From NCBI GenBank assembly GCA_937928475.1, contig CALFVE010000080.1:1-45528 (forward strand): a DNA stretch of 45,528 nt. The letters are read 5' to 3'. The position numbers were made by a program, and so were the translations under genes. Shown in pieces: positions 31,307 to 45,528 of this stretch (its first letter is position 1; the number at the start of each line of letters is the position of its first letter). Origin of the DNA: an uncultured bacterium (GTDB lineage: Bacteria; Armatimonadota; Zipacnadia; Zipacnadales; Zipacnadaceae). Below the pieces are notes generated by a model. The model was given only the letters and a program-made list of their open reading frames with translations, was not told the DNA's origin and did not search any database.

Positions 31307-31851
31307 CTAAATATGTCCTCCCCAGTCAAACATCGCCAGCAGCCGGTCCGTCGAACGGGCCAGGAGCGCCTGATAGACCGTCTGCGCCTGGGCGGGGGCA
31401 TGTCGGGCGTACAGCCCCTCCACCACGATGCGACCTTCGGCCAGCCAGCGCAGGGCGCCGCGGTGGTGGTCAGCGTGCTCATGCTCACGCCCATCAGCCG
31501 GGCGCAGACCGCGTGTTCCGGCGCCAGGCCCGCCGGCAGCGGCAGAGCCGCGCTAGCCTCCACCTGCTGCCAGGCAGCGTGCGGGCCCATGCACAAGGCC
31601 ACCTCGCCCGGCGTCAGGGTGGTGACCTGCGGCCCCACCTCCTCCACCCGAAAGACCGCGGCGTAACCGGGGTGTATCGGGAACCCCTGCTTCGCAGTGT
31701 AAGCGTATGCTAGTTCGGTACCGGGGCTGACCAGCGTAACCAGGGTCGGCCCGCTTACCTGGGTGGGACCTAGCGGTGTGCGGGGTGAGTCCACCAGCTC
31801 AGTGCATTCCGGACCCGTCACGGCTAGCTGCGGGAAGGTCGCCTCGCTCAT
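31307..31851 (-). pseudogene. Decayed MDR/zinc-type alcohol dehydrogenase-like gene (Rossmann domain deleted, plus frameshift)
   Basis: The first ~130 codons look like a GroES-like MDR N-domain (LVSPGTEL...HPGYAAVFRVEEVGPQV..LTPGEVALCMGPHA). After about nt 31460 the ORF-track frame turns into R/W/C-rich junk that overlaps the convergent gene. A different frame reads a typical MDR C-terminus, ALRWLAEGRIVVEGLYARHAPAQAQTVYQALLARSTDRLLAMFDWGGHI*, with its stop at 31307-31309. The 545-nt span is not a multiple of 3, and about 150 aa of nucleotide-binding domain is absent. Confidence 0.5.
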
Positions 31852-32666
31852 AGGATCAACCCCTGGGCCGCCGCGACCGCACGCAGGTGCTTAGCAGCCG
31901 CCGGGTACGCCTCCGCCGGGAGATGCTCCAGCATCACCGGCAGGTCGCTGTCCAGCCCGGCCAGGGCCCGCAGGAAGGCCGGGTAGTCCAATCCCCCCTC
32001 ACCAGGCGCCACCTCGCTCAGATGCACGGTGAACTCCTCCCCGAGCCGGATGTCCTTGGCATGGCAACTGCGAATGAGCGGCCCCAGGGTCTCCACAAAG
32101 TGCGTGATGAGCGCGCCGCTGTTGAAGAATCGCGAGGGGCAGTTGATTAGATTGGCGGGGTCGAAGTGCACCGCAAAGGCGGGGCGGTCAATCGCGGCTA
32201 CCAGTCGCTGGTAACTCTCCACCGAGTCGGGGTACATCCACGGCATGGTCTCCAGCGTGTAGAAGGTGCGGGTGGGGCAAACCGCATCAATGATCTCCCG
32301 CACGGTGTCCACGATGAGGGCGAAGGTGTCCTCGGTGAGATCCTCCGCGCACGGCCCGTCCCATTTTTCGCCGTGCGAGCCGGCGATGTTGACGCAGCAA
32401 CGGGCGCCCACCCGGTCGGCGGTGGCCAGACGCTCTTGGCACAGCGTGATGGCCTCCCGTCGCTTCTTCGGGTCAGGGCTCAGCGGATTGCTCCACGCGC
32501 CCACCTCGGCAATGACCAGATCCGCCGCCTGGGCTGCTTGCACGTACGCTTTTTCGTCTGCCTGCGGGACACCCGGCCAGTAGGCGGCCTGGTAGCCCGC
32601 GGCCTGGTGCGCCGCTACCCATTCCTCCGGGGAGGACACATTGAAGACAGGCCCGCCTAGCCGCAC
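31848..32666 (-). CDS. Sugar phosphate isomerase/epimerase (xylose-isomerase-like TIM barrel, AP_endonuc_2 family)
   Basis: 272 aa, typical family layout (CVNIAGSHGE, YTLETMPW, AVHFDPANL, HAKD...GEGGLDY). The stop overlaps the downstream start (ATGA). Confidence 0.85.
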   Translation of the reverse strand: MRLGGPVFNVSSPEEWVAAHQAAGYQAAYWPGVPQADEKAYVQAAQAADLVIAEVGAWSNPLSPDPKKRREAITLCQERLATADRVGARCCVNIAGSHGEKWDGPCAEDLTEDTFALIVDTVREIIDAVCPTRTFYTLETMPWMYPDSVESYQRLVAAIDRPAFAVHFDPANLINCPSRFFNSGALITHFVETLGPLIRSCHAKDIRLGEEFTVHLSEVAPGEGGLDYPAFLRALAGLDSDLPVMLEHLPAEAYPAAAKHLRAVAAAQGLIL

Positions 32667-32693
32667 GAGACACCCCTCCGCTGCCGGTCGTTC

Positions 32694-33500
32694 CTACCCC
32701 TCCAGCCTCCCCTGCCGGAACGCTGTCAGGTAGTTCATGCAATACTCGTCCCGGCAGAGCAGGGCCTCGGTGGCGTAGACCTGCGCCATGATCTGCTGGT
32801 CGAGGGGATCGAGCACCGCCGAGTCCATCCCCGCCTGCATGAAGAGCGTCAACGCCACCCGATTGAGTAGCCGCCGGTTGGGGAGGCCGAAGGAGATGTT
32901 GCTGAGGCCGGAGGTGACGTGCACCCCGGGGTGGTACTGCTTGATCTCCCGAATCGCTGCGCAGATGAGGCCCACCACGTCCGGCTGGGTGCTGACCGGA
33001 GTGACGATGGGGTCCACGAAGATGCGCTCCGGCGGCAGGCCGGCTTCCTCCTGGAGCAGGTCAATCAGCGGCAGAGCGGCCTTCTCGCGGTCGCCGGCGC
33101 GCGTGGGCATGCCGGCGTCGCCCAGCGACAGGGCGATGACGTTGCAGCCGGCCTGGCGCACTAAGGGCAGCATCGCCTCACGGCGCTCGCTCTCCAGGGA
33201 GATGGAGTTGATCATGGGGACGGCTGATCCCTCGTAGGCCCCCAGGGCCGCGGCCATCGCTTTGGGGTTGGGTGTGTCGAAGCACAGAGGTTTGGCGGTA
33301 GCCGCCTGGGCGGTCTTCACCAGCCAGACGATGTCTTCGACCTCCTTGTCGCCGACGGTGCCGGGGTTGACATCAATGAAGGCCGCTCCGGCCTCGCCTT
33401 GCTTCTTCGCCAGCCCGGCGATGTAATTCGCGTCGCGCTCAGCGATCGCCTGCTTGATGCGCTTGCGGGTGCCGTTGATAAGTTCTCCGATGATGATCAT
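32694..33500 (-). CDS. Methyltetrahydrofolate:corrinoid methyltransferase-like pterin-binding protein (AcsE/MtrH/MetH-pterin domain family)
   Basis: MIIIGELINGTRK..., FIDVNPG, CFDTPNP, MINSISLE, VIALSLGD, DPIVTPVST, TSGLSNISFGLPNR: a dihydropteroate-synthase-like TIM barrel, as in MeTr. Confidence 0.85.
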   Translation of the reverse strand: MIIIGELINGTRKRIKQAIAERDANYIAGLAKKQGEAGAAFIDVNPGTVGDKEVEDIVWLVKTAQAATAKPLCFDTPNPKAMAAALGAYEGSAVPMINSISLESERREAMLPLVRQAGCNVIALSLGDAGMPTRAGDREKAALPLIDLLQEEAGLPPERIFVDPIVTPVSTQPDVVGLICAAIREIKQYHPGVHVTSGLSNISFGLPNRRLLNRVALTLFMQAGMDSAVLDPLDQQIMAQVYATEALLCRDEYCMNYLTAFRQGRLEG

Positions 33501-33604
33501 AGGAAGGGTGAGTCCTTTCCGAATTGGAGTGGCAGATGTTCCGCGGGTCGTATCCCGGGGAATATCCGCACGCGTTTGCTACAGGGATGACCGGCGATGG
33601 ACTC

Positions 33605-33649
33605 GGGGGGATATTTTCGGGCGCAGACGCCCGCCAACATCCGCCCCTA
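33605..33649 (-). repeat. Copy 1 of a conserved ~45-nt hairpin element abutting a TAG stop codon
   Basis: Minus strand: TAG-GGGCGGAT-[26 nt]-ATCCCCCC. Same arm sequences, same 26-nt loop length and about 19/26 loop identity with the copy at 44738..44782. Confidence 0.7.
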
Positions 33650-34018
33650 CTCAGAGAGGCCCATCGTCGTATAGTATGCCAGGTTCGCCTGTGTCGCGTC
33701 GAGGCGTCCGAATTGGCAGACGACGTTCAGGTTGGCGCGCACCCGCAGGGCATACTGCACCCCGCGCGGGATCTCCACGCCGCCAATTTCCTCGGGCCGG
33801 TCCATGCGGAAGTTGACCACCCGCTCGGCAGGCACTTCCAGCGGGACGCCCTTGATTGGCGCACGGTCCTTGAAGTAAATGTCGAGTTTGACCTTCGCCG
33901 GCTGCTTGTTGAGGTTGAAGATCATGAGGGACTCGTGCGGTTCCAGTGTGCCCTCACGCGCCGGCGGGGGCAGTTCCCCGTCAGGAAAGTACCAGGTCTT
34001 GGCTCCGCCTTTGGCCAT
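33647..34018 (-). CDS. ASRT (Anabaena sensory rhodopsin transducer) family protein
   Basis: 123 aa. WYFPDGELPPP...HESLMIFNLNKQPAKVKLDIYFKDRAPIKG..LEVPAERV...IPRGVQYALRVRANLNVVCQFGRLDATQ aligns along its whole length with the remembered ASRT/TM1070 pattern (W..EGYIPP..SHE..ILN...DA.V.ITIYY.D.EPVGPY.L.VPARR...IP...VPIVVQ..RLD..Q). Confidence 0.8.
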   Translation of the reverse strand: MAKGGAKTWYFPDGELPPPAREGTLEPHESLMIFNLNKQPAKVKLDIYFKDRAPIKGVPLEVPAERVVNFRMDRPEEIGGVEIPRGVQYALRVRANLNVVCQFGRLDATQANLAYYTTMGLSE

Positions 34019-34935
34019 CAGGACACTCCTTTGATCAGCGCCACCAGCGCCTCATTCAGCGGCGTGGGGAGGCTGGTGGCCTTCCCGCGCCGCACGATTT
34101 CGCCGTTGATCTGCTCGATTTCCGTCGGCCGCCCGGCCAGCACGTCCTGCAGCATGGAGCACTGATTCGCGGCGGTGGCCTGGCAGACCTCCTCCACCGT
34201 CGCCATGGGGTCGAGGTCGCCCAGAGGCAGGCCGGCGGCAAGCGCCACCTGGTGCGCCTCCTGCGCGACCCGCCCCAGCAGGCGGCGCAGAGGCGGGTGC
34301 TGTAAGAGTTCCCCGTTGCGCCGGCCAGTGAGCGCGCCCAGGGGATTGATGGCGGCGTTGATGATGGCCTTGCGCCAGAGAGCGGCGTCCACGTTGTCTG
34401 TGACCTGCGCGGTCAGGCCGGCCCGCCGGAAAACCTCCGCCGCGGCCTCCGCGCGTTCCCAGTTGCCGACCGGGCTGCCCAGGGTAATCGCGCCGATCCC
34501 GGCCACGCGGATTCTGCCTACGCCCAGCAAGGTCGCGCCGCTAGAGGTGACGCCGGCGAGCACCTGCGCCGGCGGGACGTGGCGTTGCAGGATCTCATAG
34601 TTGCCCAGGCCGTTCTGCAGGGTGAGCACAGAGGTGCCTTCGCCGATGACCGGCGCGGCGTGCCGGATGGCGTCCTCCGTGTCATAAGCCTTAGTGAGGA
34701 TGAGCACCAGGTCGGCGGTCTCGACGCTCTCCGGGTAGCCGGTCGCCGGGACCGGGACCGTTCGGGTGCTGCCATCGGGCATCTCCAGTGAGACACCTTC
34801 GCGGGCCAGCGTCGCGGCGCGCTCCTCCTTGTGATCCAGGAGTGTCACCCGCAGGCCGGCCTCCGCCAGGAGCGCGGCATGCAGGCAGCCCATGGCCCCC
34901 GGGCCGACAATGATGAGTTGGGGGTAAGGCCGCAT
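34018..34935 (-). CDS. 2-dehydropantoate 2-reductase (ApbA/PanE) family oxidoreductase
   Basis: Start at ATG 34935 gives MRPYPQLIIVGPGAMGCLHAALLAEAGLRVTLLD (Rossmann GxGxxG). ApbA_C-like C-terminus with SMLQDVLAGRPTEIE. The stop overlaps the ASRT start by 1 nt (TGATG). Confidence 0.85.
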   Translation of the reverse strand: MRPYPQLIIVGPGAMGCLHAALLAEAGLRVTLLDHKEERAATLAREGVSLEMPDGSTRTVPVPATGYPESVETADLVLILTKAYDTEDAIRHAAPVIGEGTSVLTLQNGLGNYEILQRHVPPAQVLAGVTSSGATLLGVGRIRVAGIGAITLGSPVGNWERAEAAAEVFRRAGLTAQVTDNVDAALWRKAIINAAINPLGALTGRRNGELLQHPPLRRLLGRVAQEAHQVALAAGLPLGDLDPMATVEEVCQATAANQCSMLQDVLAGRPTEIEQINGEIVRRGKATSLPTPLNEALVALIKGVS

Positions 34936-34975
34936 AGGTGGTGAGTTGGTGACTAGTAGTTGGTAGTTGGTGGAC
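34936..34975 (-). repeat. Degenerate heptamer tandem repeat in the PanE-like 5' leader
   Basis: Plus strand: AGTTGGT at 34944-50, 34958-64 and 34965-71, plus variant AGGTGGT at 34936-42. Minus strand: ACCAACT units directly upstream of the ATG. Confidence 0.6.
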
Positions 34976-35037
34976 AGTCTGCCACCGGCCACGTGTCGTC
35001 CCAATCTAGCGCTGGCTGCTGCCGCGCCGTCGTCCAG

Positions 35038-35085
35038 CCGTTGTTCAGCCGCCGTTCGGCTGCCGTTCAGCTTCCGTTCGGCTCC
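35038..35085 (-). repeat. Four tandem ~12-nt units spanning the stop codon of the HPS/RraA gene
   Basis: Plus strand: CCGTTGTTCAGC / CGCCGTTCGGCT / GCCGTTCAGCTT / CCGTTCGGCTCC (core CCGTTC[A/G]GC). Confidence 0.6.
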
Positions 35086-36404
35086 CGCTGCGCTTTCCCT
35101 GCGCTCCCTCCCACCTGCTCCCACTTCTCCAACTCCACAATCCGCGCCAGCGTGCTGCCGGCCTCGATCTCCGCCATCTCCCGGCTCTCGCGCTCCACCA
35201 CCGCCAGGGCCCGGTTAGCAATCTCCACCGCCCGCTCCTGGGGAATCACCACTACGCCATCGTCGTCGGCGATGACCCAGTCGCCGGTGCGAATGGCGAT
35301 GCCGCCGATCTTGAGGGGCACGCCGATCATGCCCATGCCCTTGGGATCGCCGGCGGCGGGCGCGACCAGGCTGCAGAAAGCCGGGAAGCCCAGTTCCTGG
35401 ATACCGCGACTATCGCGCAGGGCCCCGTGGATGATGACCCCCGCCAGTCCACGCGAGATACAGGATTTGGTGGCTTCCTCGCCCCAGACGGCCGGCCCTT
35501 CGCCGCGCACGTCCACGAACAGCACCATGCCGGGTGCCGCCTGGTCAATCGCCTCCACCGGCTTGGCCCAGTCGCCGGGGTAAGTCCAGACGGTGAGCAC
35601 CGGGCCGACGCAGCGCGCGCGGGGATAGAGCGGGCGAATCCCTGGCACCCAGCCGCCTCGGTGCATGGCGTCGGAGACTTGCGCCGCCTCGCATTTCTCC
35701 AGAATCTCGCGAATCTGCTCCGGTCCGCCGCGCTTGTAGCGCTCGGTGGCAATCGCCTGGCCGGTTTCGATAGCGCGCAGGATTGTGCGGGTGGCCTCGG
35801 CGGCGTCGGGGGCCTTAGTGATGGCCCCGCCGACAATGATGATGTCCGCGCCGGCGGCCACCGCGGCTGGTGCCGTCTCCGAGTTGAGTCCTCCGGCAGC
35901 GGCGATGGGGATGTCCACCGCCTGCGCCACCTGCTGTAAGGTTCCCAGTGGCGTCTCCCCGCGCATTTGCACGTCAATAGGCAGGTGCACACCGATGATC
36001 GCCGCGCCGAGTTCCTGCGCCCGCCGCGCGCGGTTGGGCGGATCGGCGACTTCCGCCAGGTCTACCATGATACGCGCGTCATAGCGCTGCCCGGCCTCGA
36101 CGCACTCGGCGATGGTCTCATCGGAGGCCGCGCCGAGCACGGCCACCACCTGCGCCCCGGCCTGCGCCGCCATCTCCACCTCCACGCGCCCGGCGTCCAT
36201 GGTCTTCATGTCGGCGACGATAGTGCGGTCGGGGAAGCGGCGCTTGAGTTCGCGCACCGCCTGCAAGCCCTCGCTCTTAATCAGCGGCGTGCCCGCCTCC
36301 AGCCACTGCGCGCCGCCCGCCACCGCCTCCTCGGCTACCCGCAGCGCCTGGCTGAGATTAGCAAAGTCGAGGGCAACCTGCAGTATAGGGCCCGATGCTT
36401 CCAT
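35067..36404 (-). CDS. Bifunctional 3-hexulose-6-phosphate synthase (OMPdecase-fold) / RraA-like aldolase-type domain fusion
   Basis: The N-terminal half has HPS motifs: ILQVALDF, EAGTPLIKSEG, IVADMKTMDAG, GVHLPIDVQ, IAAAGGLN, IIIVGGAITKA. The C-terminal half is RraA/HMG-aldolase-like: VSDAMHRGG, GPVLTVW, PGMVLFVD, AVWGEEATKSCISRGLAGVIIHGALRD, AIRTGDWVIADDDGVVVIP. ATG 36404 has AAGGGTGA upstream. Confidence 0.8.
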   Translation of the reverse strand: MEASGPILQVALDFANLSQALRVAEEAVAGGAQWLEAGTPLIKSEGLQAVRELKRRFPDRTIVADMKTMDAGRVEVEMAAQAGAQVVAVLGAASDETIAECVEAGQRYDARIMVDLAEVADPPNRARRAQELGAAIIGVHLPIDVQMRGETPLGTLQQVAQAVDIPIAAAGGLNSETAPAAVAAGADIIIVGGAITKAPDAAEATRTILRAIETGQAIATERYKRGGPEQIREILEKCEAAQVSDAMHRGGWVPGIRPLYPRARCVGPVLTVWTYPGDWAKPVEAIDQAAPGMVLFVDVRGEGPAVWGEEATKSCISRGLAGVIIHGALRDSRGIQELGFPAFCSLVAPAAGDPKGMGMIGVPLKIGGIAIRTGDWVIADDDGVVVIPQERAVEIANRALAVVERESREMAEIEAGSTLARIVELEKWEQVGGSAGKAQREPNGS

Positions 36405-36565
36405 TGAGATCACCCTTGTGGTGCGTCGCGTAAGGAATATCTTGACCGCTGAGGGTTCGATTTCCTGCCCGCAGGAAGGAACCGGCCAGGTCGGGAAGAA
36501 CTTCGCCTTGTCCCGGACACGCTCTGGCGAGGTCAGCGTGCCTTGGCGACAGGAGGTTGGTCCGA

Positions 36566-37516
36566 GTGCGCCGCCCTGCTCTTATCTGCACCGTGGTGCT
36601 TGTGACTGCAATGCCTGCGCTCCCCCAAGACGCCGCTCCGCTTGCCCTGCTCACTTCTCACCTCGGCCACGCCGGGCCGCACTTTGCGCCGGGGATGAGG
36701 CCGAGTACCCTCGGATGGGGGCCGGATGACCGGCCTTACCCGGATCGATTCCTAGTGAACCCGCGCGACCTCGCCGAGATGGCCTGGATTCCGCCGGGTG
36801 AGTTCCTCATGGGCACCACTCCCGACCGCATGGACCCCGCCCACCCCGAATGGTACGCCGACGAGCAGCCGGTACACCTAGTGCGGATCACGCAGGGCTT
36901 TTGGATGTACCGGCACGAGGTGACCAACGAGCAGTTCCGCCGCTTCCGGCCCCAGCACAACAGCGGGGAGTTCCGGGGGCTTCCCGTCAACGCCGACAAG
37001 ATGCCGGCGGTGAGCCTGGACTGGGCGGCGGCGAAGGCTTACTGCGACTGGGCCGGCGTGCGCTTGCCGACCGAGGCCGAATGGGAGTATGCCTGCCGCG
37101 CCGGCAGAAACGACCGCTTCACTTGGGGCAACAGCGAACAGGCAGCCGGGCGGTACGCCAATGTCTCCGACCGCACTGCTGCCGCCAAGTGGGGCGACTT
37201 CCTCGCCTTCGACACCGACGACGGAATCGCGGTGAGTGCGGCCGTGGGTCTCTTTCCGCCCAACGCTTGGGGCTTGTATGACATGCTGGGCAACGCCTGG
37301 GAGTGGTGCGCGGACTGGTACGCCCCGGATTACTACTCTCATTCGCCGGTGGAGGACCCGGCGGGACCCGACACAGGCAAGGCGCGCGTCTTGCGCGGTG
37401 GATCCTGGTTCAGCGACCCGGTGACCGCCCGCTGCACCGACCGCTTCAGTTACTTCCCGGAGGATACCTGCCCAGGCCGGGGCTTCCGGGCCTGCGTGAC
37501 GCCGTGGGACCGATAG
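36566..37516 (+). CDS. Formylglycine-generating enzyme (FGE/SUMF1) family protein, secreted
   Basis: AGGAGG lies 9 nt before GTG 36566. Signal-like VRRPALICTVVLVTAMPALPQDAAP. IPPGEFLMGT, TEAEWEYACRAG, GLYDMLGNAWEWCADWY, RVLRGGSWF, GFRAC. Confidence 0.85.
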   Translation: MRRPALICTVVLVTAMPALPQDAAPLALLTSHLGHAGPHFAPGMRPSTLGWGPDDRPYPDRFLVNPRDLAEMAWIPPGEFLMGTTPDRMDPAHPEWYADEQPVHLVRITQGFWMYRHEVTNEQFRRFRPQHNSGEFRGLPVNADKMPAVSLDWAAAKAYCDWAGVRLPTEAEWEYACRAGRNDRFTWGNSEQAAGRYANVSDRTAAAKWGDFLAFDTDDGIAVSAAVGLFPPNAWGLYDMLGNAWEWCADWYAPDYYSHSPVEDPAGPDTGKARVLRGGSWFSDPVTARCTDRFSYFPEDTCPGRGFRACVTPWDR

Positions 37517-37553
37517 CCCCGCGAATAGCCGGCCGCTCCGCGTAGGGCGCCAG

Positions 37554-37572: not shown

Positions 37573-37575
37573 GCG

Positions 37576-39225
37576 TCACAGACTGATCCCCAGTCTCTCC
37601 AGACGCTGCCGCTCCGTGAGAGGCCTGCCGGTCTCCCTGTCCACCGCCCGCACGGTTCCGGCCACCAGCGCCGTCTCGACCTGGCCGCAGGCCTCGGGAT
37701 TGCCCGCCAGATGGGGAGCATCCAGCACTCCGCGACGCACCGCCTCGGCCAGCGTCTCGGGGTGGGTCCAGGGATCATCCTCCCCTGCGCCCAGTTGCCG
37801 GATGGCCTCCAGGGTGAGTTCCGCCTCGGCCACCAGTTCTTCGCAACGCCGGGCGACTTGCGAGTCGGCGGTCATCTCTGGCATGCCCTCCAGGCACTGC
37901 GCGAGCGCCCCGTGCACGATCCGGCAACTCTCGATCAACTCCCGAGCCGTGATAGCGTGGTCGCCCTCGCTGTAGCCGACTACGTGAACAATCTGCGGCT
38001 GGAGCGCCATCTGCAGGACGGTGGAAGCGGCCAGTTGCCCCTTGGCCTGATCGGGGTCAGGACGGAAGCAGGCCAGACCGGCCCGGGTCTGCGTAACTGA
38101 GGTGAACTGGGCGTCGTGCAGGCGCTGGATGAGCGTTCGCTTGGCCAGCATCTTGGCCAGGTCCATACTGGGCCAAGTGCGCGCGGGGGTGTTGAACATG
38201 TACTGGGCCACATACAGCCTCACGCCGGCGGCCTTGGCGTTGCAGGCGCCCAGGAAGGCGGCGACGACGGCGACGGCATCGGGCGCCTCGCGCAGGCTCC
38301 AATGATGTGCTTCGTTGCATTCCAGGGGTAGACCGCGCTCGGCGTACCAGCGCATGGCCTCCTGATTCTCAGCAATACTGACCGCCAGGGGACGCGCGGA
38401 GCGGCCATCGAGCCGGTTATACCAGAACAGCGGGACGGCGCCCCAGGCGTTGTGCACAGTACGCACGGCCAGATCCGCCCACTGGAGCAAGTCCTGGGTG
38501 CCCGCGTAGATGCGCACCAAGGGATAGTTGCCGCAGCGGGTGGCCTGGTAGATAGCCTCCAGGTCTTCGGGGCGACGCAGGGGCACACCGCCCGCGCCGT
38601 CCAGTTCGGGGCGCATCTGCTCAGGTCGGAAGAAAAACTGCTGGGCGTTCTGGTCCGGCCCGAGAGAAAGCACGTCGAGCACGCCGGCCTCGGCGATCTC
38701 CCGCGCGCCGGCCACCGTTGCCTCTACCGTAGGCTGGCCGAAGTGATGCCGCAGCAAGGGATAGCCGCCGTTGCTGGCCAAGCGTTCAGCCAAAGTGTCG
38801 GCGCGGTTGATCGGGCGGCCCTCCGCTTGCCGGCCGCGTAGGCAAGCCAGCACCGCCTCGGGGCTAGCCTCGGCGCCGAAGACCTGGTCGAAGAGCCCCA
38901 CCTGGCGAGCCTGCTCGGCGACGGGTTCGGTGCCGCCGAAGACGAAGCGGCGGTCGAGCAAAGCCCGGTCGCGCAGTTGAGTAGCGAGTTCCTCCAGCAG
39001 CCGCCGGCCCACCTCTGGCGTCAGGCGGTAACTGACCGCCACCAACTCCGGCTGCTGGCGGGCGATCTCCGCTACGAGTTGGTCTACGGGCACCGCTGCT
39101 CCCAGGGAGACCGTTCGGTAGCCCTCCTGCTCCGCCAAGCGGAGAAAGCCGAGCAAGCCAGCCACATGCACGCAGTTGCCTAGCGCCGCGCCCAGCGCCA
39201 GCGGCTTACGGTTGTCCTGGTTCAC
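37576..39225 (-). CDS. Cobalamin (B12)-binding-domain protein fused to a ~420-aa uncharacterised (TIM-barrel-like) domain
   Basis: The N-terminal ~130 aa has a B12-binding Rossmann layout (ALGNCVHVAGLLGFLRLAEQEGYRTVSLGAAVPVDQLVAEIARQQPELVAVSYRL). HxxG is kept, but Cys replaces the Asp of DxHxxG. The remainder has only vague resemblance to mutase large-subunit barrels. The start overlaps the upstream gene by 20 nt. Confidence 0.65.
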   Translation of the reverse strand: MNQDNRKPLALGAALGNCVHVAGLLGFLRLAEQEGYRTVSLGAAVPVDQLVAEIARQQPELVAVSYRLTPEVGRRLLEELATQLRDRALLDRRFVFGGTEPVAEQARQVGLFDQVFGAEASPEAVLACLRGRQAEGRPINRADTLAERLASNGGYPLLRHHFGQPTVEATVAGAREIAEAGVLDVLSLGPDQNAQQFFFRPEQMRPELDGAGGVPLRRPEDLEAIYQATRCGNYPLVRIYAGTQDLLQWADLAVRTVHNAWGAVPLFWYNRLDGRSARPLAVSIAENQEAMRWYAERGLPLECNEAHHWSLREAPDAVAVVAAFLGACNAKAAGVRLYVAQYMFNTPARTWPSMDLAKMLAKRTLIQRLHDAQFTSVTQTRAGLACFRPDPDQAKGQLAASTVLQMALQPQIVHVVGYSEGDHAITARELIESCRIVHGALAQCLEGMPEMTADSQVARRCEELVAEAELTLEAIRQLGAGEDDPWTHPETLAEAVRRGVLDAPHLAGNPEACGQVETALVAGTVRAVDRETGRPLTERQRLERLGISL

Positions 39226-40351
39226 CCTCCATCACCAGCCTTCGGATCTGGCGCACCGTCAGCCCAGCCAGGCCTAGGCTTTCCACGGTGCGGCCCGTCG
39301 CCCAGAAGTCCTCCCCCATCAGGGCGCAGGCCAGTTCGGCCACTGCGGTCATGGCCGGGGTGGGTACCCCCAGTTGCTGGCCGAGCGAGATCATCGGCAC
39401 CAGGGTCATGGGCACGTCCTCCAGGATGTAGCGGTGCATCAGGGTGATTGGCGCCATGATGCCTTTGTAGCCCGGGTTAGCCTGCACCGCCTGGTACAAG
39501 TCGCTGCCGGCTGAATCGTAGGCCAGGTACAGCCACTGACGCGCGGTGCGTATGCCCAGTCCCAGGGCGTCACCCAGGGCCACCCGCTCCTCATCCATGC
39601 GCTCCAGCACGCGAGCCACCGAAGGGGTAATGCCCTCCAGGTAGTACTCGAAACTCCCGTGAGTGCCTTCCACCCGCGCAGCATTCATGAGCATCACGGC
39701 CGGGTGAAAAAGGATGGCGACGTTGCTGAGGCCGGTCTTGAGTACATTATCACCGGGGACGAACTGGCGATAGGCCGCGCGCAGGACCTTTAGTACTTCC
39801 GAGGTGCGGTAGCCGGGAAGCGCAGCGATGGGGACATTGTTCTTGACGGCAAAGATGCGCGCCTCCGCCGGCTGGGTGACGCGGCTGGCGTAGATGAAGG
39901 TCTGCGTCTCGGCGATCAGGGGATCCGCGGGACAGCCACGCTCCCGTAGGATCCGGCGGAACTCCAGCGCCCCGCCCATGCGGCCCGGGTTGAGCACTAC
40001 CACGTGGTCATCGCGCAGGTGAGGCGCGCACTGCTCGGCCAAGAAAGCATGACCGTAGGCGGGTACCACGACCATGATCACATCCGCGTTGGCCAGGGCC
40101 TCGGCGGGGTCTGTGGTGATCAGGTCCATGCGCGCCTCGCCCGACTCTACGTTGTCCAGCCCCGGACTGAGCAGTTCGATGACCCCGCGCTCCCGCACCG
40201 GCGTCAGCCGATCCTCACTGCGGTTATACAGGGTAACGGGAAAACCCTTGAGTGCGAGATGGGCGGCCATGGCCATGCCCCCGTGGCCGGCTCCCATCAC
40301 ACAGAAGCGGTACCGCTTGGCGCAGGCTGGGGTGGAGCCTTTCTCCGGCAT
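39206..40351 (-). CDS. NAD(P)-dependent octopine/nopaline (opine) dehydrogenase family protein
   Basis: Start at ATG 40351 (MPEKG...). YRFCVMGAGHGGMAMAAHLALKGFPVTLYNR Rossmann motif. The C-terminal Octopine_DH-like region has GPITLMHRYILEDVP-type patterns (APITLMHRYILEDVPMTLVP). Confidence 0.8.
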   Translation of the reverse strand: MPEKGSTPACAKRYRFCVMGAGHGGMAMAAHLALKGFPVTLYNRSEDRLTPVRERGVIELLSPGLDNVESGEARMDLITTDPAEALANADVIMVVVPAYGHAFLAEQCAPHLRDDHVVVLNPGRMGGALEFRRILRERGCPADPLIAETQTFIYASRVTQPAEARIFAVKNNVPIAALPGYRTSEVLKVLRAAYRQFVPGDNVLKTGLSNVAILFHPAVMLMNAARVEGTHGSFEYYLEGITPSVARVLERMDEERVALGDALGLGIRTARQWLYLAYDSAGSDLYQAVQANPGYKGIMAPITLMHRYILEDVPMTLVPMISLGQQLGVPTPAMTAVAELACALMGEDFWATGRTVESLGLAGLTVRQIRRLVMEGEPGQP

Positions 40352-40551
40352 GCTTGCACCTCTCACCTTGGTCGCCGTCAGATTGCTGGTGTGAAAGCCG
40401 CCCTCAAGCGGTGCGATGGGGAGCACCCATACCGACACTGTCTACCCAGGCGAGGGTTCTGGCAGCCGCAGGCGAGCCAGCGCCTAGAGACGGCGGCAGG
40501 GCGGCCTGCCCGGCTGCCCTGCTCATCCGACGACTGAGCGTCTGCCCTCGC

Positions 40552-41424
40552 CTACAGTCCCACCGCGTCCAGCACCGGCGGCACATACTCGTTCCAGCCC
40601 AACGGCATGATATGCACGCCCTGGCAGAGCGGACGCAGGGCCTTGATCAGTTCCGCCGTGATCTCGATACTGGTGGCGACCTTGTCCTTGGTCGTCTTCA
40701 TCCGCTCGATGATTTCGTCGGGGACCATGACGCCTGCTACGTTGTTGTTCATGTAGCGGGCCATGCCCGCGCTTTTGAGCATGACCAGGCCCGCCAGGAT
40801 GGGCACGCCGATATCCCCCACCTGGCGCATGAAGTCGGCGAAGAGTTCCGGGTCGTAGACTGCCTGGGTTTGCACAAACTGGGCGCCAGCGGCCACCTTC
40901 TTGCGCAGTTTCATCAGTTGCGGCTCCAGTGGCTTAGCGCCGGGGTTGACCACGCAGCCGATGAAGAAATCGGGGGGCTCACCCTCCAGTTCGTTGCCGG
41001 CCAAATCGTGCCCCTCGCGGAGGCACTTGGCGGCGTGAATCAGTTGCACCGAGTCGAGGTCAAAGACCGGCTTGGCCTCGGGATGATCGCCGAGAGTGGT
41101 GTAATCGCCAGTCAGGCAAAGGACCTCGGTGATGCCGAAGGCAGCGGCGCTGATCAGTTCTGATTGCAGGGAGAGGCGGTTGCGGTCGCGGCAGACCATC
41201 TGCAGGATGGGGTCGAGCCCGGCCTGCTTGAGTTTGAGGCAAGCGGCGAAGGAACTGGCGCGCATAGCCGCGGCTTGCAGGTCGGTGACGTTGAAACCGT
41301 CCACGCGCCCGCGGCAGGGCTCGGCCTCCGCCTCAATCATGTGGTCGAGGTGAATCCCCTTGGGCGGGGCTACCTCAGTGGTGACGATGAACTTGCCGGA
41401 TGCAATGGCGCTGCGGATGGACAT
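40552..41424 (-). CDS. metF: Methylenetetrahydrofolate reductase (MetF family, short bacterial/acetogen-like form)
   Basis: MSIRSAIASGKFIVTTEVAPPKG, DGFNVTD, LQMVCRDRNR, VLCLTGD, FVQTQAVYD, PILAGLVMLKS. Confidence 0.85.
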   Translation of the reverse strand: MSIRSAIASGKFIVTTEVAPPKGIHLDHMIEAEAEPCRGRVDGFNVTDLQAAAMRASSFAACLKLKQAGLDPILQMVCRDRNRLSLQSELISAAAFGITEVLCLTGDYTTLGDHPEAKPVFDLDSVQLIHAAKCLREGHDLAGNELEGEPPDFFIGCVVNPGAKPLEPQLMKLRKKVAAGAQFVQTQAVYDPELFADFMRQVGDIGVPILAGLVMLKSAGMARYMNNNVAGVMVPDEIIERMKTTKDKVATSIEITAELIKALRPLCQGVHIMPLGWNEYVPPVLDAVGL

Positions 41425-41496
41425 GCTCGGTTTTCTCCTGTGCTTCTTTGTGTGCGGGCGCAACCTCCGCTCCGCCCGCCCTTTCTGCCTGCCTCC

Positions 41497-41530
41497 CCAT
41501 CCGCTCCCCCGCAGGCGGGGGACAGGATGG
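41497..41530 (-). other. Extended intercistronic hairpin between the amidohydrolase and metF
   Basis: Plus strand: CCATCC-GC-TCCCCCG-CAGG-CGGGGGA-CA-GGATGG. Outer 6-bp and inner 7-bp stems around a symmetric 2x2 internal loop, within a 165-nt spacer. Confidence 0.5.
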
Positions 41531-41589
41531 AGTTACGTTGGCCGCGTCCGGAATTCCCCCCTACCTCGGAAGGTCTTGTCCCGCCTGCC

Positions 41590-42828
41590 TTACACCTCCA
41601 GCCGGTAAGCCTCCTTCGGATTGTCCCAGAACCACTTCCGCGCCACTTCCAGAGCCTGGTCCTCAGTCATCAGTCCCGCGTGGACGCGTTCGGCCAGGAC
41701 CTCGGCGAGGTTCTCCTGCGCCATGCGCAGGTGTCCGATCACCTTGTCCACCGCCCGGCTCATATAGTCTCCGCCGAAGGCAAAGACTTTGTTCACCGGC
41801 ACGAAGTCCAGGATCAGCCTCATGCCCTCCTTGGTCAGCGTGGGGGACATGATATGCGTCCAGCACAGATTGAGCCAGACGTTGGCGAAGTTCTTGCCGA
41901 TGATGGTGGCCTCCTGCATCTGCGGGAAACTCAGGTGGTAGAGATCAAACCGGGTCTGCGGGTGGCGCATGAAGAAGGGGATCATGTGCACCGCTTCCAG
42001 TTGCCGGAAGTCGCCCCAGAGGCCGCTGTGAGTGGCGACGATTAGGTCGTGGCGGGCCGCCATTTCTAACATGCGGTCGAGTACGTACGTATGCAGCGGG
42101 TGCCACTGCGGCAGGCGCTCGATCCGGCCCGCGCGCAGTCCCTCCCACCCCGCCACGGCCTCCGGGTAGTCCGGGTCGGTGTACGGGTTGGCATGAATCT
42201 TGAGGCCAACCACCCCGCGCTGCTTGCCGGCCACCACGGCTTGCTCGAAGGCTTCCAGGTAGTCCTCAAGGGTGTGGACCTTGGCGCCCCAACTTGCCGC
42301 GTTGTTCTGGATGGCCTCCCAGGTGTGTACGTGATGCACGTGCAGTACGCGCATCACGGCCAGAAGCAGATCGCGGTCGCCGTAGTCGTTGCCGCCCTGG
42401 GTGAAGCAGCAGCGGATCTTGCATTTCTCGCGCAGGATCCACCGGTAGACGCCGGGCTGGTTGCGTTCCTGCATGGCCGCCGAGAGGGCCTCATAGGTGT
42501 CGTCGTTGATGTCGTCAAAGCCGTACAGTTCCCGGGCGGCGATAAAGCCGGCTCTTGCATAGGAGCCGAAGCGAATCTCCGGCAGGTAGCGCTGCAGTAG
42601 CCGCCAGCGGAACTCCAGGGGATAGTTGTGGTCATGAAGCCGCTGGAAGTCTGCCTCGCTCATGCCCGCCGTGATCAGGTCGGTGCGAGTGTAATGGCCG
42701 AAGAGGTTGAGCACATCCACGGGCTCGGAGGTGCGCTCCTCTTCGGGCCCCAGGTGCTCGTGGCAGTCAATAATCTCGAAGTCACGGATCGCTGTGAGAA
42801 GCGCTGCTTTGATATCTGAGATGCTCAT
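41590..42828 (-). CDS. Amidohydrolase-2 (metal-dependent TIM-barrel hydrolase/decarboxylase) family protein
   Basis: 412 aa. N-terminal IIDCHEHLG (HxH metal motif), later GLKIHANP, ATHSG and FGGDY, typical of COG2159-type amidohydrolases. Confidence 0.8.
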   Translation of the reverse strand: MSISDIKAALLTAIRDFEIIDCHEHLGPEEERTSEPVDVLNLFGHYTRTDLITAGMSEADFQRLHDHNYPLEFRWRLLQRYLPEIRFGSYARAGFIAARELYGFDDINDDTYEALSAAMQERNQPGVYRWILREKCKIRCCFTQGGNDYGDRDLLLAVMRVLHVHHVHTWEAIQNNAASWGAKVHTLEDYLEAFEQAVVAGKQRGVVGLKIHANPYTDPDYPEAVAGWEGLRAGRIERLPQWHPLHTYVLDRMLEMAARHDLIVATHSGLWGDFRQLEAVHMIPFFMRHPQTRFDLYHLSFPQMQEATIIGKNFANVWLNLCWTHIMSPTLTKEGMRLILDFVPVNKVFAFGGDYMSRAVDKVIGHLRMAQENLAEVLAERVHAGLMTEDQALEVARKWFWDNPKEAYRLEV

Positions 42829-42966
42829 TTGGTCACCTGCTGAGCGGAACTAGGACTTGCGCCCGGCGAACCCCAACCCGAGTTGCCCATCGCACCGGCC
42901 GCCACCGGCCAGCACATGAAATGGCGCCCCAACGGAGAACCTGCCTCGCGGCCTCCGTCGTTCGCC

Positions 42967-42987
42967 ACTCGCGACTCGCGGCTCGCG
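42967..42987 (-). repeat. Heptamer tandem repeat just downstream of the folD stop
   Basis: Plus strand: ACTCGCG ACTCGCG GCTCGCG. Minus strand: CGCGAGC CGCGAGT CGCGAGT, beginning 8 nt after the TAG. Confidence 0.6.
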
Positions 42988-42995
42988 CCTTGCTT

Positions 42996-43868
42996 CTATA
43001 TGCCCTTCTGCAACCTTAGCGCATTCATCGTATTGCGGAGCAGAATGGCGGTGGTGAGCGGGCCGACGCCGCCCGGCACCGGCGTGATCTGGCTGGCTAC
43101 CTCCACGGCCTCCTCGAAGACCACATCGCCCACCATCTTCGTCTTGCCCTCGGCGTCCTTCACGCGGTTCATGCCCACGTCAATGACCACGGCGCCCGGC
43201 TTGATCATGCTGCCCTTGATCAGGCCCGGCACGCCCACCGCCACGATGAGCAAGTCCCCGGTCTTCGTATGTGCTTCCAGCATCCCGGCCTCGCTGGTGC
43301 CGATGTGGCACACGGTGACGGTGGCGAACTGCTCCAAGAGCAGCAGCGCCACCGGCTTGCCCACGATCTCGCTGTGCCCGACCATCACGCACTCCAGGCC
43401 GCGCAGTTTGAGGCCGGAGGCCTTGACCAATTCCATCACCGACTGCGCCGTGCAGGGGGCCATCTCCATGTTCCCGCGCACCACGTTGCCCAAGTTGGCC
43501 GCGTTGACGCCGTCCACGTCCTTCAGAGGATCAATTACCTGCTGGATGTGCCGTGCGTTGAGGTGCGGCGGTACCGGCACCAGGAGGATAATGCCGGTCA
43601 CGCTGGGATCGCGGTTCAGTTCGATGATCTTACCGACCATGTCCCCCTGGGTGACGTCCTCGGGCAGTTCCGCCAGTTCATAGGCGATCCCGACTTCCTG
43701 GGCGGCCTTAGCTTGCATCTTGGCATAGGCCCGCGCACCGGGGTTGTCGCCGGCCATCACTGCCACCAGTTTGGGCCGCTGATCCTCCGGGAGCGCGGCC
43801 ACCGCCTCGGCCACCTCCTGCTTGATTCGCTCTGCAATGGGTCCGCCTTCAAGTAGGGTTGCTGACAT
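42996..43868 (-). CDS. folD: Bifunctional 5,10-methylene-THF dehydrogenase / 5,10-methenyl-THF cyclohydrolase
   Basis: Start at ATG 43868 (GGAGGAGG upstream). LEGGPIAERIKQEV, LVAVMAGDNPGARAYAKMQ, GIILLVPVP, DGVN, CTAQSVMEL, VMVGHSEIVGKP, PVPGGVGPLT. Confidence 0.92.
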   Translation of the reverse strand: MSATLLEGGPIAERIKQEVAEAVAALPEDQRPKLVAVMAGDNPGARAYAKMQAKAAQEVGIAYELAELPEDVTQGDMVGKIIELNRDPSVTGIILLVPVPPHLNARHIQQVIDPLKDVDGVNAANLGNVVRGNMEMAPCTAQSVMELVKASGLKLRGLECVMVGHSEIVGKPVALLLLEQFATVTVCHIGTSEAGMLEAHTKTGDLLIVAVGVPGLIKGSMIKPGAVVIDVGMNRVKDAEGKTKMVGDVVFEEAVEVASQITPVPGGVGPLTTAILLRNTMNALRLQKGI

Positions 43869-44006
43869 GTGGGCCTCCTCCGAGTCTTCCTCAGCGCACA
43901 AGCGACTTGCGCGCCTCTGCGCGCGAGTGCCGCCGGCGCGCGAACTGAGCGACAAGAACCGCTGCACGGGCAAGCCTTCTTCCTCGGCACTCCGGGAAAC
44001 GCGCCC

Positions 44007-44639
44007 CTAGACGGTAGTTATCTTAGCCAACACCGCCTCGGCGACCTCCTTGGCGGTGCGCATTTGCCGCTCGGCCTCCATCATCTGCTCCCGGGCTTCG
44101 GCAATGTAACCTCCGTCGGTGATGCTTGCCAGGTTGACCTCCACGTTGAGTCGTCCGGCCTCGAAAGCCGCCTGGGCCAGGATAGCCGCCACGCCCACGT
44201 CGCTGAGCAGGTTCGGATTGCCTTTCTCGGCCATGGGCGGGAGCAGCTCGGCGATCTCCCCGGCGGCAATTACCACGCCGAGCGGCACCTGCGCCGCGGC
44301 CTTGAGCGCGTCTTGGACAGCGGCCTCGCGCGCCCACTTCTCGGCGTCGGTATTGCGGGGCATCCGGTAGGCCGCGCCCACTTGGGCGTAAGCCTCGGCG
44401 TCGGCATCTGTCAGCTGGAGGCAGCGCTCGCGCAGGGCCTGGAGTTTCTCCAGAAGTTCGGCCACCTCGGCCTCTACCTCGGCGAACTTGGGCTTGCCCA
44501 CGGTAAACGACCCCACCATCGCCGCCGAGGCGGCAGCCAAGGCCCCGACCAGCGCCGCAGCGCTGCCCCCGCCGGGCGTCGGGCCAGGGCCCGCGAGGAG
44601 CTGAGTGTAGCTGCGGACGGATTCTTCAGTCAGCTGCAT
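44007..44639 (-). CDS. Cyclodeaminase/cyclohydrolase family protein (FTCD_C; methenyl-THF cyclohydrolase FchA-like)
   Basis: 210 aa. LAGPGPTPGGGSAAALVGALAAASAAMVGSFTVGK, AYRMPRNTD, NPNLLSDVGVAA are FTCD_C hallmarks. AGGTGAGG SD before ATG 44639. Confidence 0.8.
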   Translation of the reverse strand: MQLTEESVRSYTQLLAGPGPTPGGGSAAALVGALAAASAAMVGSFTVGKPKFAEVEAEVAELLEKLQALRERCLQLTDADAEAYAQVGAAYRMPRNTDAEKWAREAAVQDALKAAAQVPLGVVIAAGEIAELLPPMAEKGNPNLLSDVGVAAILAQAAFEAGRLNVEVNLASITDGGYIAEAREQMMEAERQMRTAKEVAEAVLAKITTV

Positions 44640-44737
44640 GATTAACCTCACCTGCCGTCAGCGTTGTAGAGGGACCCTACCCGCCTCGCAGAGTGGGTGA
44701 GGTCCGCCTGCGCCTGCTAGGTTGAGGGTCGAGACGC

Positions 44738-44782
44738 GGGCGGATATTGTGCTGCGCGGACGCCCGCCAAGATCCGCCCCTA
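44738..44782 (-). repeat. Copy 2 of the conserved ~45-nt hairpin element abutting a TAG stop codon
   Basis: Minus strand: TAG-GGGCGGAT-[26 nt]-ATCCGCCC, a perfect 8-bp stem (44738-45 / 44772-79). See copy 1 at 33605..33649. Confidence 0.7.
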
Positions 44783-45528
44783 CGGGAAACGTCCCGCGAA
44801 CAACGCCTGCGCCTCGTCCACCATCGCCAGCACACTCTCTAGCGGCACATCCTCCTGTATTGCCTGCGCCGGGGCGAGGATATAGCCGCCGCCCCGGCCG
44901 AGCAGCGCCGCGACCTCGCGGACCTCGCGGCGCACCTCGTCGGGCCTGCCGTAGGGGAGCGTCCGCTGCGTGCTGATGCCACCCCAGAAGCAGAGCCGGT
45001 CGCCGAACTCGCGCTTCAGCGCGGCTACCTCCATGCACTCCGGCTGCACCGGGTTGAGCACCTGCACCCCCATCTCCACTACCTCGGGCAGGACAGCGCG
45101 GATATTGCCGCAGGAGTGCAGGAAGGCGTACTTGCCGGCCTCGCGGATCCTGCGGAACAGGCGCGCATGGCGCGGCCCGATATACTTGCGCCACATTTCG
45201 GGTCCCATCAGCAGGCCCTGCTGGCTGCCCCAGTCGCAACCCAGCAGCACCCCGTCCACGTCGGCCGACAGCATCATCTCCAGTATGATCAGGTCGGCGG
45301 TGACGATCCGCTCGAAGAGCGCGTCGCAGTATTCCGGGTGGAGCAGCATGTCCGCGAGCAGATTCTCCATCCCTCGCAGGAACCAGGCCTTCTCGAACAG
45401 CGAAGCATAGAACCGTACCAGCAGGAAAGCGTCGGTGGTCTCGCGCAGGCGCGCGATGGCTTCCGTCAGGTCCGTGAAACTGCCCACGCCCTGCACGTCG
45501 GGCAGCCGCGAGGGGACATCCGGCTCCT
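44780..45528 (-). CDS. Uroporphyrinogen-decarboxylase (URO-D) family methyltransferase (MtaA/CmuA/O-demethylase-type), 5' end outside window
   Basis: The reading frame is open to the window edge (...EPDVPSRLPDVQGVGSF...). The C-terminal two-thirds of the URO-D fold is present: LHSCGNIRAVLPEVVEMGVQVLNPVQPECM, GGISTQRTLPYG, GGGYILAPAQAIQEDVPLE. Confidence 0.8.
   Translation of the reverse strand, partial: EPDVPSRLPDVQGVGSFTDLTEAIARLRETTDAFLLVRFYASLFEKAWFLRGMENLLADMLLHPEYCDALFERIVTADLIILEMMLSADVDGVLLGCDWGSQQGLLMGPEMWRKYIGPRHARLFRRIREAGKYAFLHSCGNIRAVLPEVVEMGVQVLNPVQPECMEVAALKREFGDRLCFWGGISTQRTLPYGRPDEVRREVREVAALLGRGGGYILAPAQAIQEDVPLESVLAMVDEAQALFAGRFP

Follow-up and report, generated by a model that had tools for sequence, protein, structure and literature searches.

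The question raised by this locus is whether one long row of genes from an uncultured member of the Zipacnadia (Armatimonadota) encodes a single corrinoid-dependent demethylase, as an initial annotation had proposed, or several systems lying side by side. The row occupies one end of contig CALFVE010000080.1 (GenBank assembly GCA_937928475.1), the whole of which, at 45,528 nucleotides (nt), is here called the window, and it holds folate enzymes, two putative methyltransferases, a B12-binding fusion protein, an opine dehydrogenase (OctDH) and a fusion of 3-hexulose-6-phosphate synthase with an RraA-like domain (HPS-RraA). We propose that the region is a composite of three modules and not one demethylase, a reading to which we give about an even chance. 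The locus looks like a lineage-typical supra-operon for folate-bound one-carbon (C1) metabolism with two unexplained conserved partners, namely HPS-RraA together with the reductase PanE, and a putative B12 mutase paired with OctDH, and we advise against classing it as a demethylase system.

The gene row is real, with all of the domains that had been named in it confirmed. Frame-specific analysis of GC content at third codon positions (GC3), together with the listing of open reading frames (ORFs), places thirteen co-directional ORFs on the minus strand between 31240 and 45528 and a single plus-strand ORF inside the row (36557-37516), in agreement with the thirteen genes and one antisense FGE-like gene first described; the block begins at 31240, with the last minus-strand ORF, and not at 31307. 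Profile scans with Pfam and NCBIfam over the window ORFs (scores are in bits, with model cut-offs given alongside) reproduced every domain call, the MDR ORF alone being without a family match. As the window is the complete contig, the URO-D gene is truncated where the contig ends, and there is no sequence past nt 45528, where an operon start or extra genes had been thought to lie. The genes, in order from the contig end, are as follows.

44780..45528, minus strand: MtaA/CmuA-like methyltransferase of the URO-D family (PF01208), 5′ end cut by the contig end
44007..44651, minus strand: FchA-type methenyl-tetrahydrofolate (THF) cyclohydrolase (PF04961)
42996..43973, minus strand, likely start near 43868: FolD, methylene-THF dehydrogenase/cyclohydrolase (PF00763 and PF02882)
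41590..42828, minus strand: amidohydrolase-2 superfamily protein (AH2), UxaC-like (PF04909)
40552..41463, minus strand: MetF, methylene-THF reductase, resembling the C-terminal domain of YitJ (PF02219)
39206..40438, minus strand: opine dehydrogenase (OctDH), CENDH-like (PF02317)
37576..39225, minus strand: fused B12-binding (GlmS-like) and GlmE-like TIM-barrel protein, putative adenosylcobalamin (AdoCbl)-type mutase (predicted fold)
36557..37516, plus strand: FGE-sulfatase-domain protein with a signal-peptide-like N-terminus (PF03781)
35067..36413, minus strand: HPS-RraA fusion, 3-hexulose-6-phosphate synthase with an RraA/HMG-aldolase-like domain (TIGR03128, PRK07028)
34018..35124, minus strand, likely start near 34935: PanE/ApbA-family 2-oxoacid (ketopantoate-type) reductase (TIGR00745)
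33647..34018, minus strand: small beta-sandwich protein of the ASRT family (PF07100)
32694..33500, minus strand: MeTr/AcsE-type methyl-THF:corrinoid methyltransferase (NF005719/PRK07535)
31848..32666, minus strand: xylose-isomerase-like TIM barrel of the sugar-phosphate isomerase/epimerase family (PF01261)
31240..31851, minus strand: probable MDR dehydrogenase remnant, GroES-like N-terminal part only (weak PDB matches)

The initial annotation read the B12 protein as the corrinoid carrier of a methyl relay, and on this point our analysis departs from it. The protein has 549 amino acids (aa), with a B12-binding domain at residues 10-123 (41.8 bits) and about 420 aa that match no Pfam family; NCBIfam holds no model for its family, which numbers more than 5000 homologues (clusters at 90% identity) of about 545-555 aa. 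Identity to the window protein is 54-92% among 43 diverse members, and within the family it is 50-75% across the fetched loci, from many phyla. Since sequence searches of the PDB, made with the protein and with the family profile, matched only the B12 domain, a search by fold was needed. The AlphaFold (AF2) model made from the family alignment (pLDDT 91.3, pTM 0.80) has the E subunit of glutamate mutase as its top Foldseek matches (6h9e_B and 1cb7_B; E ~3e-17, TMt 0.65-0.67, ~440 columns), followed in order by the ornithine and lysine aminomutases and then by the methylmalonyl-CoA, isobutyryl-CoA and 2-hydroxyisobutyryl-CoA mutases, with no methyltransferase barrel among the top matches. In the cobalamin motif H20 and G23 are present in all 43 sequences, and of the S-x-L and G-G motifs S65 is found in 42 of 43, L68 in all and G97-G98 in nearly all; position 18, canonically Asp, is Cys in 40 sequences and Asp in three (C-x-H-x-x-G vs D-x-H-x-x-G). 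Furthermore, an exhaustive search of representatives found distant relatives (P0396, P0403 and P0405) with the barrel fused C-terminally to MutL, the accessory protein of glutamate mutase, and one relative (P0374) with the barrel fused to an ATP-grasp ligase and a PF06368 (Met_asp_mut_E) score of 27.5 against a cut-off of 26.6; the S-E-MutL triple fusions measure 826-1266 aa, and the P0374 type is an S-E-ATP-grasp fusion. The window protein gives no PF06368 match, 3 of 120 homologues do among those listed, and no MutL gene adjoins the mutase gene in the window or in 87 fetched loci. Judged from its predicted fold, the B12 protein is structurally a fused GlmS- and GlmE-like enzyme, not a corrinoid methyl carrier, and would be a putative mutase of the AdoCbl type.

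The same protein can also be read as a methyl-accepting corrinoid enzyme with a CmuA-like fused architecture, in which the TIM barrel would activate a methyl donor or acceptor, MeTr would provide the link to THF and the opine dehydrogenase would process the (de)methylated product. The exchange of the motif Asp for Cys, which is atypical for mutases, would suit such a role, as would the best sequence matches of the B12 domain in the PDB, which include corrinoid proteins of methyltransferases, and the gene order itself, MetF-OctDH-B12-HPS/RraA-PanE-MeTr being found in the window and in L140 (fetched loci carry L numbers), and the same order from OctDH onwards in L009, L010 and L050. However, the top structural matches of the large domain consist entirely of AdoCbl isomerases, MutL is a fusion partner in relatives, and MeTr is missing within 10 kb in about 80 of the 87 loci, many of whose hosts are Bacteroidales or Ignavibacteria; we consider this reading very unlikely. 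Two side observations belong with the protein: a paralogous group of about 30 proteins of 600-635 aa, with a longer and weakly B12-like N-terminus, shares 33-38% identity with the mutase barrel, and a Hydantoinase_A gene lies 9 kb from the mutase gene in L005.

The genomic company of the mutase is that of the opine dehydrogenase. A scan of 185,579 species genomes found at least 580 stretches encoding a relative of the mutase, in Armatimonadota, WS1, Zipacnadia, Aminicenantes and other Acidobacteriota, Ignavibacteria, Bacteroidales, Clostridia, Halanaerobiales, Planctomycetota, Gemmatimonadota, Chloroflexi, Deinococcota and one metagenome-assembled genome (MAG) of the Methanomicrobia, and the neighbourhood counts rest on the 87 of these loci that were fetched. 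Directly upstream of the mutase gene lies an OctDH gene in 76 of the 77 loci with at least 1.1 kb of upstream DNA, with a median of 35 nt between the two (those of the window share 20 nt), and in one further locus it lies directly downstream. About 80 of the 87 loci have no homologues of the window C1 genes, and in a WS1 MAG the pair is found on another contig than the C1 cluster, beside an AsnB-like gene (L011). This AsnB-like gene is the third recurrent neighbour of the pair, present in 43 of 87 loci (e.g. L006 11654-13000, L011 6808-8247) and not in the window; its product matches asparagine synthase B at 312 bits and has a shortened N-terminal glutaminase part. No methylaspartase was seen with the mutase family in the loci examined, and in the literature searched no description was found of the OctDH-mutase pair or of an opine dehydrogenase with cobalamin and AsnB. 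The near-constant adjacency, together with the almost general absence of C1 genes, makes the pair a self-contained module, and it is separable from the C1 cluster. OctDH itself (163 bits to PF02317) aligns over its full length, residues 44-401, with 1bg6, the N-(1-D-carboxyethyl)-L-norvaline dehydrogenase (CENDH) of Arthrobacter (E 9e-85). It had been taken as a hint of an N-substituted amino-acid or opine-like substrate for the demethylase, which does not hold: as its module is separable from the C1 genes, the opine dehydrogenase says nothing on a C1 substrate.

Around the pair, genes for MscS-type mechanosensitive channels occur in 10 loci (e.g. L019 13844-14701) and trehalose-synthesis genes flank it in L006 (4638-8683 and 20889-21641), which hints that the pair may make an osmolyte-like compound. 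A gene for a DUF6785/DUF6784 membrane protein stands directly downstream of the pair in L002 (9396-11957), L003 (5664-8225) and L004 (5558-8119), and the window has one at 10505-12553 on the minus strand.

The C1 cluster, in turn, can be followed through relatives whose gene orders came from a metagenome scan with the Amidohydro_2 protein and from the neighbourhoods of HPS-RraA homologues. The closest named relative is a MAG of candidate division WS1 (88% identity in HPS-RraA), and ten related loci (L009, L010, L050, L115, L138 and L140-L144) are referred to below. The gene orders are the following, with identities to the window; FolP and MeTr were confirmed with NCBIfam.

L115, 70-86% identity: GuaA-C, URO-D′, Fhs, orf126, URO-D, FchA, FolD, AH2, MetF, creatininase-family, FGE (antisense), HPS/RraA
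L138 (WS1), 63-88% identity: Fhs, URO-D, orf231, FchA, FolD, MetF, creatininase-family, orf364, HPS/RraA, PanE, ASRT, sulfatase, MeTr
L140, 54-78% identity: FdhA-like, FolP, 5-formyl-THF cyclo-ligase, FolB, Fhs, FchA, FolD, MetF, OctDH, mutase, HPS/RraA, PanE, MeTr, UxaC-like AH2, GH26
L009, L010 and L050, 53-76% identity: OctDH, mutase, HPS/RraA, PanE, MeTr, then AH2-like in L009 and L010
L142 and L143 (Armatimonadota), 44-69% identity: FolP, cyclo-ligase, one gene, HPS/RraA, PanE, MeTr, MetV, MetF
L141, 50-70% identity: like L142 and L143 up to PanE, MeTr decayed, MetV and MetF absent

Chance does not account for the arrangement, as contigs independent of one another repeat this gene order. 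Its constant core is HPS/RraA-PanE-MeTr with MetF nearby, set among genes of folate biosynthesis and THF interconversion, and the recurring neighbours are housekeeping ones (FolP, FolB, 5-formyl-THF cyclo-ligase, Fhs, the C-terminal domain of GuaA, MetV); no transporter, regulator or substrate-specific methyltransferase recurs with the cluster, unlike what would be expected of a catabolic island. Some HPS/RraA clusters contain the mutase pair and others do not. L115 and L138, the closest relatives in synteny, have the C1 cluster without the pair, the B12 gene being absent from the clusters of L115, L138 and L141-L143, and the window position taken by the pair corresponds in L115 (12264-13094) and L138 (7942-8742) to a creatininase-family (MftE/ArfB-like) gene after MetF. 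The expectation that the whole gene set would co-occur across genomes thus stood for its sub-blocks, which are co-conserved in relatives, and failed for the trio of URO-D, B12 protein and MeTr.

Within this cluster the THF enzymes are readily assigned. FchA scores 199.9 bits with PF04961 and 187 bits with NF045657, under the cut-off of 275, and its gene is syntenic in L088, L115, L138 and L140; FolD has both of its domains and reaches about 270 bits with the NCBIfam FolD models, under their equivalog cut-offs; MetF scores 118 bits with PF02219 and 241 bits with the C-terminal part of PRK08645, and is preceded by MetV (PF12225) in the Armatimonadota loci. MeTr passes NF005719/PRK07535 (300.3 against a cut-off of 259), as do its orthologues (294-329 bits), which come after PanE in L009, L010, L050, L138, L140, L142 and L143. 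As their family membership shows, FchA, FolD and MetF, with Fhs in relatives, would interconvert formyl-, methenyl-, methylene- and methyl-THF. URO-D (PF01208, 88.7 bits) has as its best NCBIfam match MtaA/CmuA, TIGR01463, at 72.6 bits against a cut-off of 235; in alignment with MtaA (4ay7) it keeps H-x-C and has the third Zn cysteine replaced (LAPGCG to LAPAQG). Its orthologues measure about 315 aa, which leaves some 67 codons missing from the window gene, and all of them lack a fused B12 domain. Synteny of the gene is seen in L115 and L138, and an Armatimonadota orthologue of 71% identity is unlinked to THF genes (L144). An identity as HemE was dismissed, there being no match to the HemE model and the best matches being of MtaA type.

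It is on these enzymes that a single catabolic corrinoid demethylase would be built, in which URO-D would serve as MT1 and MeTr as MT2, with the B12 protein carrying the methyl between them; that methyl, of perhaps an N-substituted compound, would pass to THF, be oxidised via MetF, FolD and FchA and in part be assimilated by HPS. The portion of this proposal that stands is the co-directional set of MtaA/CmuA-like URO-D, MeTr above its cut-off, MetF, FolD, FchA and HPS, to which Fhs and a formate-dehydrogenase-like gene are added upstream in relatives, and whose gene content resembles that of the cmu chloromethane cluster. Against the proposal speaks the B12 protein, whose predicted fold is that of a mutase and which is part of an autonomous, separable pair, and L115 and L138 retain the C1 genes without it. 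Neither the window nor the ten related loci encode a small (~210 aa) corrinoid protein, a RamA/RACo activase or an MttB, and no transporter or regulator is conserved, so that the deviations listed by the initial annotation (these absences, and the presence of HPS/RraA, ASRT and PanE) are real in the window. URO-D also lacks the third Zn ligand and has an unlinked orthologue in Armatimonadota, its gene lies 12 kb from that of MeTr, the two being together only in the window and L138, and the recurring neighbours are folate-biosynthesis genes. We therefore regard a single demethylase as unlikely. Beside MeTr in L138, and convergent with it, lies a gene (15396-18182, minus strand) for a 928-aa fusion of DUF1638 with a Hydantoinase_A/MutL-like ATPase, which could be an activase or reactivase.

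MeTr and MetF are accompanied most constantly by HPS-RraA with PanE. The HPS-specific model TIGR03128 is passed (211.1 against a cut-off of 200), the KGPDC models reach only 72-94 bits against cut-offs of 250-294, and the fusion model PRK07028 gives 544 against a cut-off of 593. Pfam finds an OMPdecase and an RraA-like domain, and the PDB matches are HPS (9lj9, 3ajx) and RraA-like proteins (3k4i, 3noj). As family membership shows, the HPS domain would interconvert hexulose-6-phosphate and ribulose-5-phosphate plus formaldehyde. Compared with 3noj, the RraA-like domain keeps the catalytic Arg123 and the metal ligand Asp124 of HMG/CHA aldolase and has Glu for D102; the LigK models score far under their cut-offs, and the domain is accordingly not a LigK orthologue. 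HPS activity has been measured for an archaeal HPS-MenG fusion built in the same way, whose MenG-like domain is unexplained (PMC5241800). A literature search for HPS with RraA found nothing relevant. PanE has the ApbA and ApbA_C domains and scores 277 with TIGR00745 against a cut-off of 141, and its gene is immediately downstream of HPS-RraA in 9 of 10 loci.

The amidohydrolase brings in another reading of the downstream half of the row. AH2 (38.4 bits to PF04909; no PDB match by sequence) is 33% identical to a UxaC/Amidohydro_2 protein encoded after MeTr in L140, L009 and L010, and this paralogue gives a weak UxaC match in L140 and L010; elsewhere its homologues are found among sugar-metabolism genes (Gfo/Idh/MocA, AP_endonuc_2, sulfatase) and not among amino-acid genes. 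On account of these neighbours and of the UxaC match of the paralogue, AH2 is no pointer to an N-substituted amino acid, as had been supposed. One could then see a sugar or sugar-acid catabolic cluster, composed of the OMPdecase-fold enzyme, an RraA-type 2-keto-acid aldolase, a PanE-type reductase, the UxaC-like amidohydrolase, the AP_endonuc_2 isomerase and ASRT as a sugar-binding protein, with MeTr and MetF taking methyls from O-methylated sugars or uronic acids. Besides the company and paralogue of AH2, the neighbours GH26, Pectate_lyase22, AXE1 esterase, sulfatase, NeuB-AP_endonuc_2, SDR and HAD in relatives speak for such a cluster. Against it, the HPS model is passed and the KGPDC models are far lower, there is no conserved substrate methyltransferase, corrinoid protein or sugar transporter, and the carbohydrate genes vary by locus where the folate genes recur, which leaves it, in our view, improbable. 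In some metagenome contigs the Amidohydro_2 family occurs as tandem duplicates (L098 10001-12436, L101 1249-4646), which in L101 are followed by a MeTr homologue of 45% identity, a second independent AH2-MeTr adjacency.

The remaining genes of the row are less constant. The FGE gene (187 bits to PF03781) has a copy of 82% identity in L115 (13119-14606, minus strand), in the same position and also antisense to the cluster, and is probably unrelated to C1 metabolism; it lies tail-to-tail with the mutase gene and head-to-head with HPS-RraA, which divides the row into at least two transcription units. The ASRT gene (109.6 bits to PF07100) stands between PanE and MeTr also in L138 (69% identity) and not in the other relatives. 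A sulfatase gene in L138 (13044-14489) splits PanE-ASRT from MeTr, and sulfatase-related genes recur inside the cluster without an obvious C1 link. The AP_endonuc_2 protein (72.7 bits to PF01261, with a weak match to L-ribulose-5-phosphate 3-epimerase) is encoded at 31848..32666, a position not kept in relatives. Of the last ORF, 31240-31851, which has no Pfam or NCBIfam match, the first ~125 aa show weak similarity to the GroES-like domain of MDR enzymes (best PDB E 0.018); all six PDB matches are MDR enzymes, the best of them aligned at the equivalent position, and the C-terminal half looks like sequence read out of frame. The ORF has no match in the ADH genes after the cluster in L141 and L142, and the other minus-strand frames downstream do not continue the protein, so that its description as a decayed MDR dehydrogenase is plausible but weak, the similarity being confined to the GroES-like N-terminal part.

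Outside the row, the other 31 kb of the window encode housekeeping and envelope functions (XseA, Dxs, RecN-like, NAD kinase, CorA, GH15, DinB, PilB, T2SS-F). A 409-aa ORF with coding-like codon composition (30050-31279, plus strand) converges on the end of the cluster and has no Pfam, NCBIfam or meaningful PDB match, and DUF169 and DUF4432 genes, next to each other at 25017-27659 on the plus strand, lie upstream of pilB. GC content is 64-71% over the window with no compositional break at the region; a mobile island was dismissed on account of this uniformity, of the housekeeping flanks and of the absence of an integrase in the window. No Rfam family exceeds its threshold in the window, no cobalamin, THF or S-adenosylmethionine riboswitch was found in the window or in four related loci, and a scan for promoters and terminators gave no signal above shuffled expectation.

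The three-module model that we propose would operate as follows. The first module would be a folate C1 supra-operon typical of WS1, Zipacnadia and Armatimonadota-like bacteria, in which FchA, FolD and MetF (with upstream Fhs in relatives) may shift THF-bound C1 units between the formate and the methyl level, the direction of flux not being readable from sequence. MeTr would connect CH3-THF by methyl transfer with a cob(I)amide protein encoded elsewhere, and the MtaA-like URO-D would probably be the second methyltransferase of this relay. In the second module HPS may tie sugar phosphates to methylene-THF via formaldehyde, as Fae-HPS does with tetrahydromethanopterin (H4MPT) in methanogens; the RraA-like domain might join formaldehyde to a 2-oxo acid, giving a product that PanE could go on to reduce by a reaction like that from ketopantoate to pantoate. 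The third, autonomous module of two genes, OctDH and the fused GlmS/GlmE-like B12 enzyme, would most likely rearrange a glutamate-like amino-dicarboxylate, or the opine of one, by AdoCbl radical chemistry, link this to the NAD(P)H-dependent formation or cleavage of an opine, and would in some lineages, that of the window included, have been set between MetF and HPS-RraA.

Several points weigh against this model. The mutase pair stands immediately upstream of HPS/RraA-PanE-MeTr in five loci of related lineages, so that a link with C1 metabolism is possible, and the Cys for canonical Asp, untypical of AdoCbl mutases, could mean a different cobalt chemistry. The HPS cluster is found in only about ten loci from related phyla, where shared ancestry inflates synteny, and the linkage of URO-D with THF genes is limited to close relatives. 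A corrinoid partner for MeTr is lacking in the window and the ten related loci, which leaves the methyl relay incomplete, and no gene for 6-phospho-3-hexuloisomerase (PHI, SIS domain) accompanies HPS in the window or any HPS locus. Finally, the functional steps past family membership are all inferred. A more ambitious version, which we hold to be doubtful, takes the pair as a new cobalamin enzyme system for a new substrate class (e.g. an opine or amino-dicarboxylate), wired with HPS-RraA, PanE and MeTr into the folate C1 metabolism of WS1/Zipacnadia-type bacteria; if true, the locus would be a new junction of formaldehyde and methyl-THF with 2-oxo-acid or amino-acid skeletons.

What is new in the locus is not so much a C1 island as two associations that are conserved and unexplained, the OctDH/B12-mutase pair and the HPS-RraA-PanE-MeTr-MetF block. 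One candidate novel demethylase is removed, and a large and strongly conserved family of B12 enzymes is exposed, whose substrate would add a reaction to the short list of cobalamin-dependent isomerases and which bears on the prediction of B12 dependence in anaerobic communities. The HPS-RraA-PanE-MeTr-MetF block provides a testable genomic context for the unexplained second domain of the HPS-MenG fusion and is relevant to the coupling of free formaldehyde with THF in bacteria. Furthermore, MeTr/AcsE-type enzymes are seen to sit in folate housekeeping clusters of uncultured heterotrophs without CODH/ACS.

Among known systems, the Wood-Ljungdahl methyl branch of acetogens (Fhs, FchA/FolD, MetF/MetV, MeTr/AcsE) draws on the same enzyme families, and as in that pathway MetV-MetF adjoins MeTr in Armatimonadota relatives, and Fhs and an Fdh-like gene adjoin the cluster in L138 and L140. 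Unlike that pathway, no CFeSP (AcsCD), CODH or ACS is encoded in the window or any fetched locus, their place being taken by HPS-RraA, PanE and folate-biosynthesis genes; on methyl-branch genes of Armatimonadota the literature yielded only general Wood-Ljungdahl papers. With cmu and the three-component corrinoid systems the row shares a URO-D/MtaA-like protein, a pterin-binding methyltransferase, MetF and FolD in one row, but it differs from them in having no carrier-type corrinoid domain or protein and no activase, in a URO-D that is unfused and one Zn cysteine short, and in the distance between URO-D and MeTr. HPS-RraA has the two-domain architecture of HPS-MenG from Methanospirillum hungatei (Mhun0647) and, like Fae-HPS of methanogens, is linked genomically to a pterin C1 pathway; unlike these it is bacterial, linked to THF and not to H4MPT, and followed by PanE and MeTr with no adjacent PHI gene. 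The B12 protein resembles glutamate mutase (GlmS/GlmE, MutS/MutE/MutL), a class I AdoCbl isomerase, in its Rossmann B12 domain, His-on motif and E-like TIM barrel, and departs from it as a single polypeptide with the S domain N-terminal, with 16-17% identity to GlmE and failure of the Pfam MutE model, with Cys for the motif Asp, and with an opine dehydrogenase as its partner where methylaspartase is not seen. Similarly, OctDH is like CENDH over its full length and in its Octopine_DH domain, and unlike it in being genomically locked to a B12 mutase.

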